A DNA stretch of 64,000 bases, taken from assembly GCA_035556715.1 (NCBI GenBank), contig DATMER010000050.1, positions 87,978 through 151,977 of the forward strand, given 5' to 3'. Both the position numbers and the translations under genes were made by a program. Positions 4,633 to 44,376 of this stretch are shown piece by piece. The notes under the pieces are model-generated. The model was not told the DNA's origin. It ran no database searches and saw nothing but the letters and a program-made list of their open reading frames with translations. Each line of letters begins with the position of its first letter. Positions within the stretch are counted from its first letter, which is position 1. Origin of the DNA: Thermoanaerobaculia bacterium. Lineage in GTDB: Bacteria; Acidobacteriota; Thermoanaerobaculia; Multivoradales; UBA5704.

Positions 4633-6309
4633 CTACGGTGAGGAAACCGCCGCCCGCACATCCCCCCTCAGGGCGGGGAGGTCGAGCGGCACCACGGGCT
4701 CCTGGGCCAGGGCGGCGGCGAGCTTGGCGTCGTGGCCGTAGACGTCCTTGCGGAAGTGGATGGCTCCGTTGTCTTCCACCCAGGCGGTGAAGTAGAGGAT
4801 GTGCACGGGCAGCTTCTTCGGCAGCTTGATGCTCCGCTGCTCGCCCGAGACGATGGCCTCTCGCAACCGGGTGCCGCGCCAGTCGGGGTTGTCCCGGAGC
4901 AGGTACTCGGCGAGCTGCACCGGCCGCTCCAGGCGGACGCAGCCGTGGCTGAAGTCCCGCTCTTCCCGGGAGAAGAGGTGGTCGGCGGGGGAGTCGTGCA
5001 GGTAGACGTCGTGCTCGTTCGGGAACATGAACTTGACCTGGCCGAGCGGGTTGTCCGGGCCGGGGCGCTGGCGGATCCGCTGACTGCCGCCGCTGCTCAC
5101 GAATTCCATGTTGTTGCGCGCCATGTAGCCGGGATCGCTCGCCTGCTTGGGGAGGATCTCCTCCTCGGCGATGCTGGTGGGGATGTTCCACGCCGGGTTC
5201 AGCTCCAGGTACTCCATCTGGTCGCTGAACACAGGTGTCTGGCTCTGCTGCTTGCCCACGACCACGGCCATGTCGAGCGCCTTGCGGCCCCCGTCGATCA
5301 GCTCCATCCGGTACTCGGGGACGTTGACCCAGATGTAGCTGTCGCCCAAGCTGTTCGGCAGCCAGCGCCAGCGCTCCAGGTTGAGCTCGATCTGGCGGAT
5401 GCGGTCCTGCACCGGCACGTTGAGCTCGGCCAGGGTGCCTTCGCCGAGCTTGCCGTCGGGGTCCAGGCCGTGGCGCTGCTGGAAGCGGGCGATCGCCTGG
5501 GCCACGGCGTCGTCGAAGACGGGCGGGGGAGCGGGTTGGCCCTCCTCAGCCGGAGGGACGGCGAGGTCCCCTTCCGCGGCGAGCCGGTTGCGCAGCGCGA
5601 GCACTCCCGCTCCCCGGGCTCCCATCTCGAGGCCCGCGGGCACGGAGGGCCAGCCGCCCTTGGCCGCGATCTCGCGATATCGGGCGAGGGCGTCCCGCAG
5701 CCGGGCATAGCGGGGATTGGGCGGAGCCAGGCTCCGGAGGCTCTCCATGACCGCCCCGTCCTTGTCCTGCAGGGTCGTCTCCAGGCGGGCATCCAGGTCG
5801 ACGTTGCGCGACTGGTCCTCCCAGTGGACGCGGAGCGTCTCGGGCTGCACCCGGCCGATGGCCGTGTGGGCCGCCAGGGTCAGGTAGACGAAGGTCAGCT
5901 CGACGTCGAGGTCGGCAAGCCGGCGCTGAGCCTCCGGCGATTCGAGCGACTCCTGCTCCTTCACCTGGCTGAGCAGGCCCGCGAGCCGGGTGCTGTGATA
6001 GCGGCGCGGGTCGAGCCCTTCGGCGGTGGTGATGGAGCCGAGGGTCTCGACGAGCTGCTCGGCGTGAGGCCGGGGGCCGCCCACTTCCGACCAGGCGGGC
6101 TGGTACTGGCGCTTCTGGTAGAACCGGCGCATCTCGTCCCAGGCGCGCGCCCGCTCCTTCTGCTCCTTGATGGAGACAGGCAGGGTCTCGGATTCCACGG
6201 TGGAGCGGATGATCTGCGCCACCTGGGGCGGCATGATCTTCTCGCGGCACCCGGTAAGAAGGAAAACCCCGGCGAGAACTAGGGAGAGGGGCAGAATTCG
6301 CAATTTCAT
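4633..6309 (-). CDS. L,D-transpeptidase family lipoprotein (YcbB/LdtD-like, peptidoglycan-binding plus YkuD catalytic domain)
   Basis: Catalytic motif region HDSPADHLFSREERDFSHGCVRL (YkuD His/Cys). Lipoprotein signal MKLRILPLSLVLAGVFLLTGC. ORF 4633..6426 trimmed to the internal ATG at 6309, which precedes the signal peptide. Confidence 0.8.
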   Translation of the reverse strand: MKLRILPLSLVLAGVFLLTGCREKIMPPQVAQIIRSTVESETLPVSIKEQKERARAWDEMRRFYQKRQYQPAWSEVGGPRPHAEQLVETLGSITTAEGLDPRRYHSTRLAGLLSQVKEQESLESPEAQRRLADLDVELTFVYLTLAAHTAIGRVQPETLRVHWEDQSRNVDLDARLETTLQDKDGAVMESLRSLAPPNPRYARLRDALARYREIAAKGGWPSVPAGLEMGARGAGVLALRNRLAAEGDLAVPPAEEGQPAPPPVFDDAVAQAIARFQQRHGLDPDGKLGEGTLAELNVPVQDRIRQIELNLERWRWLPNSLGDSYIWVNVPEYRMELIDGGRKALDMAVVVGKQQSQTPVFSDQMEYLELNPAWNIPTSIAEEEILPKQASDPGYMARNNMEFVSSGGSQRIRQRPGPDNPLGQVKFMFPNEHDVYLHDSPADHLFSREERDFSHGCVRLERPVQLAEYLLRDNPDWRGTRLREAIVSGEQRSIKLPKKLPVHILYFTAWVEDNGAIHFRKDVYGHDAKLAAALAQEPVVPLDLPALRGDVRAAVSSP

Positions 6310-11683: not shown

Positions 11684-11753
11684 GCGGAAAAAGGACCAAA
11701 GGACTCAAAGGACAGCAAGGACCTGGCCGCGGTATGCTCACGCGGCCAAGTCC

Positions 11754-12359
11754 ATGAACGCCTATATCGAAAGCTTCCTGCCGCTCTTCGTGGCGATCAA
11801 CGCGCTCGGGGTCATCCCGATCTACCTCGCGGTGACCGAAGGGCTGACCCCCACGGAGCGCCGCAAGCTGACCCTCCAGGCGGTGGTGACCGCGTCGCTG
11901 GTCGCGGTGCTGGTCCTCTTCGCCGGCCAGCTCATCTTCTCCCTGCTCGGGATCACGGTGAACGACCTGCGGGTCGGCGGCGGCCTGATCCTCCTGGTGC
12001 TCAGCACCTCGAACCTGATCTTTGGAGACTTCCGGCGGAGGGACCCGCGTCAGGATGTCGATGAGGCGGAGGGCGCGTCGGTGGGGGTGGTGCCGCTCGG
12101 TATTCCTCTGATCATCGGCCCCGCGGCCATCACATCCGTCCTGGTCTCGCGGGAGGCCTTCGGCTACCTGCCAACGCTGACCTCGCTGGTGCTGAACATG
12201 GTGATCGTCTTCCTGACGCTCGCGTTCAGCCCCTGGCTCGGCCGGATCATGGGGACGGCGGTGAGCCGCGCCGTGGGCAAGGTGGCGAGCCTCTTCCTCG
12301 CGGCCATCTCCGTGGCGTTGATCCGCGCGGGGATCGTGGGGATGATCCAGGCGCTGTAG
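11754..12359 (+). CDS. MarC family (UPF0056) integral membrane protein
   Basis: 201 aa, six predicted TM segments; N-terminal FLPLFVAINALGVIPIYLAVTEGLTP typical of the MarC family. Confidence 0.85.
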   Translation: MNAYIESFLPLFVAINALGVIPIYLAVTEGLTPTERRKLTLQAVVTASLVAVLVLFAGQLIFSLLGITVNDLRVGGGLILLVLSTSNLIFGDFRRRDPRQDVDEAEGASVGVVPLGIPLIIGPAAITSVLVSREAFGYLPTLTSLVLNMVIVFLTLAFSPWLGRIMGTAVSRAVGKVASLFLAAISVALIRAGIVGMIQAL

Positions 12360-12360
12360 G

Positions 12361-12520
12361 CCCTCACCCCCCAACCCCCTCTCCCGGTCCCCCGAACACA
12401 CCCGCCCCGGGAGAGGGGGAGACTTGCTTCGAGTTAGTTGTTTTCTTAGACGGGAGGTGGCGCCCCTTTACCGGGGCGGGTGTGCTTGGGAGGAGCGGGA
12501 GAGGGGACGGGGGTGAGGGC
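12361..12520. repeat. Large imperfect GC-rich palindrome (~57-bp arms around a ~45-bp centre), intergenic; founding copy of a repeat family also found inside NRPS genes
   Basis: Left arm CCCTCACCCCCCAACCCCCTCTCCCGGTCCCCCGAACACACCCGCCCCGGGAGAGGGGG is approximately the reverse complement of right arm CCCCTTTACCGGGGCGGGTGTGCTTGGGAGGAGCGGGAGAGGGGACGGGGGTGAGGG. The right end GGGGGTGAGGGCTCCGGA recurs at 38978-38996 inside the NRPS. Confidence 0.6.
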
Positions 12521-12538
12521 TCCGGATAAGATGGCCGC

Positions 12539-13438
12539 ATGGTGCGGGCTCTCGTCTTTTGTCTTCTGCTTCTGCCGGCCCTCGCCGCGGCCCAACGCCC
12601 CCCCGAGCTGATCATCCAGGCGCCTCCCTCCCTGGAGCGGGCGGCGTCCCGCGTGCGGTCGATCGACACCAGCCGGTTGCTGGAGACCATGCGCCTGGTC
12701 GGCCTGAAGGATCCGGGCCCTCCGATCCAGGTCTTCCTTGGACCGGAAGGGTCCGACCTGGCCCAGGTTCCGCCCTGGGTGTCGGGCTATGCCTTCGGCG
12801 ACGAGGGGGTGATCGTGCTCCTCCCGGCGCGGACGCCTTCCTATCCGGACTCGTCCCTCGAAGAGCTTCTCCGGCACGAGGTGGCGCATGTGCTCGTGGC
12901 CCGGGCCGCGGGTGGACGGCCCCTGCCTCGCTGGTTCCACGAGGGGCTGGCCATGATCGCCGGACTGAGCTGGGGGCTCGACGACCGCTCTCAGCTCACC
13001 CTCGCGATGATCGGGGACCGCGAGGTCTCGCTGGAGAGGCTCGAGAGGGCGTTCGCCGGAGGGCAGGGGGAGGTCCACGGCGCCTATGCGATCGCCGGCG
13101 CCTTCGCCAACGACCTGCTCCGCCGGCATGGCGACGACGTGGCCGGCCGCATCCTCGCCAACGTGGGCCAGGGGCTTTCGTTCGAGGAGGCCTTCCTGCG
13201 CGCCACCGGGATCTCGCTCGCCGATGCCGAGCGCGCTTTCTGGCGGCGGCAGACCTTCTGGTACCGCTGGGTTCCGGTGCTGACCAGCTCGGTCACGCTC
13301 TGGCTCCTGATCACGCTGCTGGCGATCTGGGCGATGGGCAAGAGGAGGGCCCGGGACGCGGCCCTGCGCAGGATTTGGGAGGAGGAGGAAGAAAGGCGGC
13401 TCGCCGAGTCTCAGGACACCGGCGAGCCAATCAACTGA
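12539..13438 (+). CDS. Putative gluzincin-like zinc metallopeptidase, secreted/membrane-anchored (HExxH-X17-E)
   Basis: 299 aa with signal peptide MVRALVFCLLLLPALAAA. HEVAHVLVARAAGGRPLPRWFHEGLA (HExxH followed by a downstream Glu). C-terminal TM helix (WVPVLTSSVTLWLLITLLAIWA). Confidence 0.5.
   Translation: MVRALVFCLLLLPALAAAQRPPELIIQAPPSLERAASRVRSIDTSRLLETMRLVGLKDPGPPIQVFLGPEGSDLAQVPPWVSGYAFGDEGVIVLLPARTPSYPDSSLEELLRHEVAHVLVARAAGGRPLPRWFHEGLAMIAGLSWGLDDRSQLTLAMIGDREVSLERLERAFAGGQGEVHGAYAIAGAFANDLLRRHGDDVAGRILANVGQGLSFEEAFLRATGISLADAERAFWRRQTFWYRWVPVLTSSVTLWLLITLLAIWAMGKRRARDAALRRIWEEEEERRLAESQDTGEPIN

Positions 13439-25725: not shown

Positions 25726-44372
<18,647 letters not shown>

Positions 44373-44376
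<4 letters not shown>

Follow-up and report, generated by a model that had tools for sequence, protein, structure and literature searches.

What is the GC-rich imperfect palindrome of 160 bp, here denoted E1, that separates a MarC-family gene from the gene downstream of it in the genome of a Thermoanaerobaculia bacterium (phylum Acidobacteriota)? The element resides in a stretch of 64,000 nucleotides (contig DATMER010000050.1 of assembly GCA_035556715.1, positions 87,978 to 151,977; hereafter, the window), and the initial annotation of this DNA assigned it to a mobile family resembling miniature inverted-repeat transposable elements (MITEs) or repetitive extragenic palindromic (REP) sequences, and considered it a possible transcription terminator of MarC. 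Our analysis suggests a different answer: E1 is probably a composite of the family known as BoxC, PIT or the “intrastrand triplex motif”, that is, selfish or parasitic, structure-prone DNA rather than a signal of the MarC gene. A family of repeated palindromic elements is indeed involved, but not a new, genome-specific MITE or REP family, because the motif has been described before and is found in many phyla and in viral contigs. For this window, a false lead is thereby removed: E1 represents neither a MarC terminator nor a new class of elements.

The palindrome is present at positions 12361 to 12520, and the annotated arms of ~57 bp around a ~45-bp centre agree well with those we measured, namely, arms of ~59 nt and a centre of 43 nt. 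The left arm (12361–12419) and the right arm (12463–12520), both described here on the plus strand, match as reverse complements in 49 of 59 positions in a gapped alignment and over 51 nt with 71% identity in an ungapped inverted alignment. Alignment of the arms yields a shared unit, CCCTCACCCCC, 2–6 nt, CCCCTCTCCCG, loop, CGGGAGAGGGG, the architecture of which in the window can be written as CCCTCACCC / CCCTCTCCC-loop-GGGAGAGGG. A unit in this orientation is called a C-unit here, and one in the reverse-complement orientation a G-unit, so that E1 reads C-unit, centre, G-unit. The C-unit on the left consists of the third-strand block CCCTCACCCCCC, a 2–4 nt spacer, CCCCCTCTCCCGG, a 19-nt loop and CCGGGAGAGGGGG, and contains a perfect 13-bp hairpin of its own (12375–12387 / 12407–12419), whereas the G-unit on the right comprises a degenerate CCCCTTTACCG, a 22-nt loop, CGGGAGAGGGG, AC and GGGGGTGAGGG. 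The centre (12420–12462) has a G+C content of 49% compared to 70% in the window. The predicted RNA fold of positions 12355–12530 is far more stable than expected for its composition (-126.1 kcal/mol compared to -82.5 +/- 4.9 kcal/mol for 200 dinucleotide shuffles, z -8.9), and the minus strand folds about equally well (z -8.8).

The arms of E1 have true relatives inside a large gene of the same window, as the initial annotation proposed, although their number and boundaries differ from those given there. The 18-mer at the right end of E1, GGGGGTGAGGGCTCCGGA, recurs exactly, at positions 38980–38997 rather than at 38978, and again in inverted form, with two mismatches, at 38845–38862; the 11-mer CGGGAGAGGGG occurs six times in the window compared to 0.31 occurrences expected, a count that was reached in 0 of 100 shuffles. 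The two 18-mer sites are the ends of a second composite, E2 (38845–38997, plus strand), which consists of a C-unit, a 26-nt centre and a G-unit and spans 153 nt, that is, 51 in-frame codons of adenylation domain 4 of a nonribosomal peptide synthetase (NRPS). The right arm of E1 and the left arm of E2 share 26 consecutive identical bases together with the flanking CCGGAG, and CTCCGGA, which directly follows the right arm of E1 (to position 12526), is common to the E2 ends; the centre of E1 does not recur in E2. The RNA fold of E2 (-125.6 kcal/mol, z -6.9) is as strong as that of E1. The NRPS open reading frame (ORF; 25726–44376, plus strand, 18.6 kb, 6216 aa) is open throughout and, apart from E2, holds three single units of a shorter variant, all on the plus strand: S1 (27412–27464), S2 (29461–29513) and S3 (32567–32619). 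Thus, the relatives that had been annotated as five further in-frame NRPS copies are actually one composite and three single units. The S-units follow the pattern GGGCGGGGGCK-CCCTCTCCCGC-loop-GCGGGGGAGGG-NN-GGGGAGGGGG, with S1 reading GGGCGGGGGCG-CCCTCTCCCGC-GGA-GCGGGGGAGGG-AA-GGGGAGGGGG, and identity among their cores is 81–87%, compared to the background level (~45–60%) in the flanks. We also considered GGGAGAGGGG at position 31068 as a copy of the family, but this site is isolated, lacks the partner blocks and probably arose by chance.

The seven units found within the 64 kb of the window closely resemble a motif that is already known from Escherichia coli, where it is called TM_ECO and has the form 5'-CCCTCNCCC-N3-6-GGGNGAGGG-N3-GGGNGAGGG-3' (Holder et al. 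2015, PMC4666352); it was named earlier BoxC (1990s, Bachellier) and PIT element (Hoyne and Maher 2000) (PMC4666352). The G-rich single strand of this motif folds back twice, forming a hairpin and adding a third strand, which results in a purine-motif intrastrand triplex that was detected in vitro by circular dichroism (CD) and nuclear magnetic resonance (NMR) (PMC4666352). This arrangement corresponds to a three-block rule (a pyrimidine block, a purine block and a mirror-purine block, each of 9–13 nt, with at most one mismatch per pairing), and six of the seven window units conform to it, compared to 0 of 1400 shuffles. Watson-Crick pairing extends over 12/12 positions in the left unit of E1, 11/11 and 13/13 in the left and right units of E2, 9/10 in S1 and S3, and 8/9 in S2; the third block of these six units mirrors the purine block, through G.G, A.A or T.A triads, in 11/12, 10/11, 12/13, 9/10, 8/9 and 9/10 positions, and the third strand of the left unit of E1 scores 11/12 under the Y-R-H triplex rule. 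The right unit of E1, with two mismatches in the pyrimidine block, falls outside the strict triplex rule. A matched change of the purine block and the third block distinguishes the S variant (GGGGGAGGG with GGGGAGGGGG) and keeps the mirror symmetry on which a triplex depends.

This joint change also bears on another structural interpretation, under which the units act via a G-quadruplex (G-rich strand GGG-AGA-GGGG-NN-GGGGG-TGA-GGG) or an i-motif (C-rich strand) as a structural or regulatory signal, without forming a triplex. Each unit does contain four G-tracts of at least three bases separated by loops of at most 3–7 nt, the canonical quadruplex pattern, and the words of the motif appear in reviews of bacterial G4 structures. 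Nevertheless, we consider this interpretation quite improbable given that CD and NMR of the E. coli unit indicate a triplex (PMC4666352), that a quadruplex needs neither the conserved complementary C-rich block nor the mirror symmetry of the G-blocks, and that the S variant preserves precisely this triplex-type symmetry. The BoxC-type assignment does not extend to the exact published spacing and 9-nt blocks of TM_ECO: the first loops of E1 and E2 are 18–22 nt long and the second loops 2–4 nt, whereas the S-units have loops of 5 and 3 nt but a third block, GGGGAGGGGG, that does not fit GGGNGAGGG. The window units are variants of a wider G/C-rich triplex-motif class and not strict TM_ECO elements.

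Where do these units reside within the NRPS? S1 lies in frame in the segment that links the N-terminal acyl-AMP ligase domain to its carrier domain, whereas S2, S3 and E2 are all found just 5' of the A3 motif (LAYxxYTSGSTGxPKG), in adenylation domains 1, 2 and 4, respectively (domain 3 contains no unit), with E2 directly preceding the A3 motif LAYVVYTSGSTGRPKG. S2 and S3 occupy the loop between the A2 and A3 motifs and are translated in different frames, S2 in the same frame as S1 and read as GRGLPLLHRGGGQGRGS, S3 in the other frame and read as APSPAERGRVGEGV; therefore, it is the DNA that is conserved rather than the peptide. In 104 homologous adenylation domains, the distance from A2 to A3 is 50–85 aa, with a median of 68; in the window, this distance is 69, 69 and 66 aa in three domains and 103 aa in the domain with E2. 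Accordingly, S2 and S3 fill the loop without lengthening it (69 aa compared to the median of 68). Only one of the three forward frames across E2 is open, namely, the frame in use. The nearest relatives of this NRPS come from Thermoanaerobaculia, and in NRPS orthologues with 69% and 77% identity, no unit was found at the E2 site: E2 is a lineage-specific insertion in a permissive loop. In an AlphaFold2 model of a 500-aa segment of the adenylation domain (mean predicted local distance difference test score, pLDDT, of 87), the E2-encoded residues 133–169 are coil with pLDDT below 50, so that the E2 peptide is predicted to form a disordered loop within an otherwise confident domain. The NRPS thus carries four repeat-derived peptide segments, which matters for the prediction of its product or for its expression. 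Beyond this window, an in-frame unit was identified in a plant-type asparaginase gene (L097); for such assignments, we used only Pfam-confirmed cases because the statistics of ORFs spanning the units, genic or intergenic, were judged unreliable in high-GC DNA.

The location of the in-gene copies could, in principle, reflect selection at the protein level for flexible, Pro/Gly-rich loops, or duplication of NRPS modules, with the resemblance to E1 being compositional. S2 and S3 indeed occupy homologous positions in two modules, in loops that are not lengthened, and the peptides encoded by the NRPS units are rich in Gly, Pro and Arg. This explanation appears highly improbable, however, because one and the same DNA motif is translated in one frame in S1 and S2 and in another in S3, and because S1, in a linker with no homology to the other sites, is still 87% identical to S2/S3 while the flanks are at background. 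Moreover, no such peptide was found in any of 120 homologous adenylation domains, the short variant occurs in abundance (at least 120 stretches in metagenomes) in unrelated contexts, mostly outside NRPS genes, and E1 shares the 26 identical bases with E2.

Several side observations concern the same regions. An AAGGAC repeat with a 7–8-nt period fills the spacer between the BON and MarC genes (window positions 11684–11725); in a related NRPS (P0002), the A2-A3 loop contains an in-frame repeat of the same type (KDIKDLRDIKDSKDSKD), and another such repeat adjoins an S-type unit in a metagenomic contig (L156). At window positions 42040–42980 (NRPS residues ~5440–5750), a fifth A3 motif appears to follow a methyltransferase-like segment (…GGVLLVADVP…) instead of the usual A1-A2 region, and the nearest A2-like motif is 313 aa away; this domain order is provisional. 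Short-read assemblies seem to break at elements of the E1/E2 type: the sole short contig from Logan that contains MarC (L001) stops within E1, and the contig with an NRPS orthologue of 87% identity (L244) begins, to within a few bases, at the place of the right edge of E2.

Does E1 nevertheless act in the MarC transcript, terminating it as an intrinsic signal, attenuating transcription between MarC and the peptidase gene, or stabilizing its 3' end in the manner of REP elements? Its location invites this interpretation. The MarC-family gene (11754–12359, plus strand; its product is 100% identical to MarC of a Thermoanaerobaculia metagenome-assembled genome, or MAG) ends with a TAG stop codon at 12357–12359, E1 begins one base 3' of it, and the 179-nt spacer up to the next gene is almost entirely E1. 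The downstream gene (12539–13438, plus strand), orthologues of which encode Peptidase_MA_2, starts with an ATG at 12539, 13–19 nt past the end of E1; an exact look-up of its protein gave no match. REP-type hairpins stabilize the upstream mRNA, and the RNA hairpin of E1 is extremely stable. However, the scan for terminators returned no sites, and the stem is followed by CTCCGGATAAGATGG, without a run of T (U in the RNA). In addition, E. coli members of the family display neither promoter nor terminator activity (PMC4666352, citing Maher's group), the equally stable E2 lies inside the intact 18.6-kb ORF, and E1 is missing from the same spacer in close relatives. The proposed role of E1 as the MarC terminator is thus not borne out, and a functional RNA hairpin of any of these three kinds is unlikely, although E1 may have an incidental stabilizing effect on the MarC RNA. 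A scan of E1 against Rfam detected no family at the gathering score, the best matches being miRNA-precursor-like hairpins (41 bits compared to a threshold of 197), and at permissive thresholds, only such generic hairpin models were recovered.

Comparison with relatives clarifies the history of this spacer. Thermoanaerobaculia with MarC proteins 90–92% identical to that in the window keep the gene order Ku, FdhD, BON, MarC, Peptidase_MA_2, Reprolysin, but their spacer between MarC and the peptidase gene is 586–600 nt long and has other content; E1 was not found in it, and the sole part that these spacers share with the right end of E1 is GGGAGAGGG-TCCGGATAAGATG, beside the peptidase start. Instead, the related spacers contain about 13 copies of a 22-nt tandem repeat (L248:2880-3150), an extended array of 'cttagatc'-type repeats, each of ~16 nt, beside an ISAZ013 transposase (L245:2610-3000), and an unrelated palindrome of ~280 nt (L247:2890-3170). 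This varied repeat content indicates that the MarC-peptidase spacer is a repeat hot spot in which E1 is lineage-specific. No clean empty site for E1 was found among these orthologous spacers, whose greater length and different repeats obscure the insertion boundaries of E1 and any target duplication. Separately, the minus strand of the relatives' spacer encodes a small protein with a Lys-rich, GG-type leader followed by a Cys-rich peptide (MKKKDKKKLTLNRETLVSLEENLPLVAGG...CEYSGYQTCATCGQTCGTNLC; L247:2620-2790, L248:2640-2815), which looks like the precursor of a modified peptide; this gene is not present in the window.

The BoxC-type family extends far beyond the window. Using the pattern CCCTCACCCCC-N1-8-CCCCTCTCCC and one genome per species, we found at least 120 stretches with the motif in bacterial genomes, whereas about two matches would be expected by chance in this collection (a rough estimate that assumes uniform base composition). 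The genome matches listed come from Chloroflexota, Planctomycetota, Acidobacteriota, Alpha-, Beta- and Gammaproteobacteria, Geobacterales, Cyanobacteria, Melainabacteria, Armatimonadota, Nitrospirota, Gemmatimonadota and others, and the long variant was also detected in at least 120 stretches of viral contigs from IMG/VR. Although it was not part of the search pattern, the complementary purine arm follows within 45 nt in 115 of the 147 matches listed (78%); among these matches, it takes the form GGGAGAGGGG in 83 cases and the mismatch form GGGCGAGGGG, with the mismatch of the E. coli 'A mm' type, in 30. The first loops among the matches listed have a median length of 6 nt and reach 15 nt or more in nine cases, which include Holophagales and Thermoanaerobaculia MAGs with E1-like loops. 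Among the inverted pairs listed, those in the order of E1 (C-unit, then G-unit) outnumber those in the opposite order by 25 to 7, and they include Thermoanaerobaculia composites (loci L107 and L116) with ~45-nt centres of lower G+C content. As further observations (L057:470-750, L119:1-165 and L299), some Chloroflexota contigs carry head-to-tail arrays of units (4 in 280 nt), and one viral contig has five units in 12 kb.

These data leave a practically negligible probability that G/C runs in a genome with 70% G+C gave rise to the pattern by chance. Admittedly, the hairpins of the S-units are no more stable than those of shuffles (z about -1), and the short pattern CACACCCGCCCCGG occurs in the window at the frequency expected by chance. 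The folds of E1 and E2, the 18-mer, the 11-mer counts and the three-block rule all exceed the shuffled controls, however, so that the resemblance goes beyond composition of G/C runs, and the part of the motif that the pattern left free was recovered in most of the matches listed from the collection.

How might such elements spread? A possible clue comes from genes for proteins with the DUF559 domain. In a betaproteobacterial methionyl-tRNA synthetase gene (MetRS; L005:1746-4420, minus strand) and in the leucyl-tRNA synthetase gene of Panacagrimonas (LeuRS; L117:620-3688, plus strand), we identified an in-frame insert that consists of one or more G-units, a DUF559 domain and a C-unit (Pfam E-values of 1e-32 and 3e-34) and leaves the frame of the host gene open. 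In the 1.5 Mb of loci examined, each of the six DUF559 genes has a unit no more than about 550 nt away, although only 17% of the sequence is this close to one (p ~2e-5). Among the 119 database homologues of the LeuRS-borne DUF559, 59 contain unit-encoded peptides in the predicted termini, with a clear polarity: peptides of G-units are upstream in 31 cases and downstream in 2, and those of C-units are downstream in 51 and upstream in 1. These counts were obtained with a broader, orientation-aware peptide pattern and a control set, and the patterns had no matches in 84,056 residues of control proteins; a stricter pattern, which under-counts, gave 9/120. Two further modules (L373:1334-1826 and L371:1501-1985) are inserted precisely at the junction of a lolE-like and a lolD-like gene and overlap the stop and start codons of these neighbours; the module in L373 lies between two identical direct repeats of 12 nt, ATGAGTGAACTC (at 1334 and 1815), a sequence that includes the lolD start codon, and brings a Shine-Dalgarno-like TAAGGAAGG for lolD. 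In E. coli K-12, the DUF559 gene ycjD (fabI-ycjD-sapF, L122:1500-2400) has a unit-like hairpin at its 3' end and is followed by the truncated 3' end of a second DUF559 gene and then by TM_ECO #9. We considered precise excision of the ycjD/TM block, which is missing in ~2000 of 5426 E. coli genomes, but rejected it, given that a TetR/RND efflux block is present there instead and the breakpoint is ~30 nt from the unit.

DUF559 is a member of the Vsr-like branch (PF04480), as is the proven EDxHD homing endonuclease I-Bth0305I (PMC3239194, PMC3384342, PMC3424549, PMC9403480), and its only close relative with a solved structure is the uncharacterised 3HRL. Judging by this gene arrangement, the unit-flanked DUF559 modules suggest how the BoxC-type family moves. 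We tentatively put forward the possibility that the units are the termini, and the far more common solo or paired remnants, of a pan-bacterial selfish family that has DUF559-encoding autonomous members and inserts where it does the least harm, either in frame within genes (MetRS, LeuRS and, for the gene-less E2, an NRPS loop) or translationally coupled at gene junctions, with E1 and E2 being non-autonomous. Most units have no DUF559 gene nearby, none is encoded in the 64-kb window, viral loci with many units contain no DUF559 gene, and the order in the modules (G-unit, gene, C-unit) is the reverse of that in E1 and E2; in Roseateles (L105), E1-like composites are located on both sides of a DUF559 gene. 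In the literature, we found no work linking DUF559 with BoxC or TM motifs. If the proposal holds, BoxC, an orphan repeat for ~30 years, gains a mobilizing enzyme, and a class of endonuclease-bearing elements emerges, neither intron nor intein, that is translated through by the ribosome. The DUF559 modules are a directly testable candidate for the engine of the family's spread.

We envisage that the units, and the ~60-bp hairpin or cruciform that a pair of them could form, would stall or mislead polymerases during replication or repair, and that the family would spread and decay through slippage and repair-templated copying, with the mover probably being the DUF559 (Vsr/EDxHD-like) endonuclease of autonomous relatives located elsewhere. 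Under this scenario, copies would persist solely where they are harmless, that is, in tiny spacers and in in-frame, stop-free segments encoding surface loops and linkers of the NRPS. In RNA, the long hairpin alone could form, possibly protecting the 3' end of the MarC transcript or hindering read-through as an incidental effect.

Several observations weigh against the view of E1 as selfish, triplex-type DNA. There is no clear target-site duplication at E1 or E2 (the flanks of E2, CCGGGA / TCCGGA, may belong to the inverted repeat instead), so that the movement of these two composites is inferred from distribution alone. In each of the three related spacers, a G-rich block immediately precedes the peptidase start, and this block might matter for the translation of the peptidase. 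Even in E. coli, the triplex was not detected in duplex DNA or by in vivo footprinting with dimethyl sulfate (PMC4666352), and for the window units, the long first loops and the degenerate block in the right unit of E1 make the triplex capacity less certain than the hairpin capacity. Finally, the exact conservation across phyla, including the mismatch variant CCCTCGCCC opposite GGGAGAGGG, suggests, as far as comparison of sequences can tell, recognition by some sequence-specific factor, and therefore, a host function is possible.

With regard to known systems, E1 and E2 resemble MITEs such as Correia, ERIC and Nezha in their size of ~150 bp, terminal inverted repeats, strong hairpin potential and occasional in-frame insertions. 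They differ from MITEs in that target-site duplications are not apparent, no transposase shares their ends, and the arms themselves are autonomous repeat units that are also found singly. With REP, BIME and REPIN elements, the family shares short, GC-rich imperfect palindromes, single or in inverted pairs, that are located in operon spacers, and copies that far outnumber the presumed mobilizing gene. Unlike REP sequences, which are palindromes of 20–40 nt with a conserved GTAG head and flank a RAYT gene, the window units lack this head (the GTAG before E1 is the context of the MarC stop codon), no RAYT gene is apparent nearby, the associated gene encodes DUF559, which has a fold different from that of the IS200/IS605-like RAYT, and the motif is near-identical across phyla whereas REP sequences are species-specific. 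The Rickettsia palindromic elements (Ogata et al. 2000) are reportedly palindromic repeats of 100–150 bp that also occur in frame in protein-coding genes, at tolerant sites; they are said to be unrelated in sequence, to be confined to one genus with an AT-rich genome and to have no described triplex architecture. The proven EDxHD and Vsr-like homing endonucleases, from the same branch as DUF559, reside in introns or inteins or are free-standing, whereas the unit-flanked DUF559 modules are neither introns nor inteins and are inserted in frame or translationally coupled.

The closest match is BoxC/TM_ECO itself, with three blocks of nearly the same letters (CCCTCNCCC, GGGNGAGGG, GGGNGAGGG), a recurrent mismatch variant, occurrence as single units and inverted pairs, and location in short spacers beside unrelated genes and in locally variable DNA. 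In E. coli, loci with the motif are rearranged among strains more than others and are tied to genome instability, and no link of TM_ECO to a transposon, phage or plasmid has been reported (PMC4666352). Compared to the published elements, the window units have longer G/C runs and the 2–4-nt second loop, and the 18–22-nt first loops of E1 and E2 would be missed by the published search, which allowed loops of 1–6. The host is an acidobacterium of the Thermoanaerobaculia whereas the published pattern was described from proteobacteria. Each of the 23 copies in E. coli K-12 is intergenic, with inverted pairs at five loci (PMC4666352), whereas five of the seven units in the window lie in frame within a gene; furthermore, the window pairs are arranged with the C-unit first and the G-unit second, an order that is reversed in four of the five E. 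coli pairs. The long-loop variant and the in-frame occurrence of units in permissive NRPS loops and linkers depart from the published description, and the present analysis extends this repeat family from the spacers of enterobacteria and other proteobacteria to many phyla, to viral contigs and to in-frame coding sequence.

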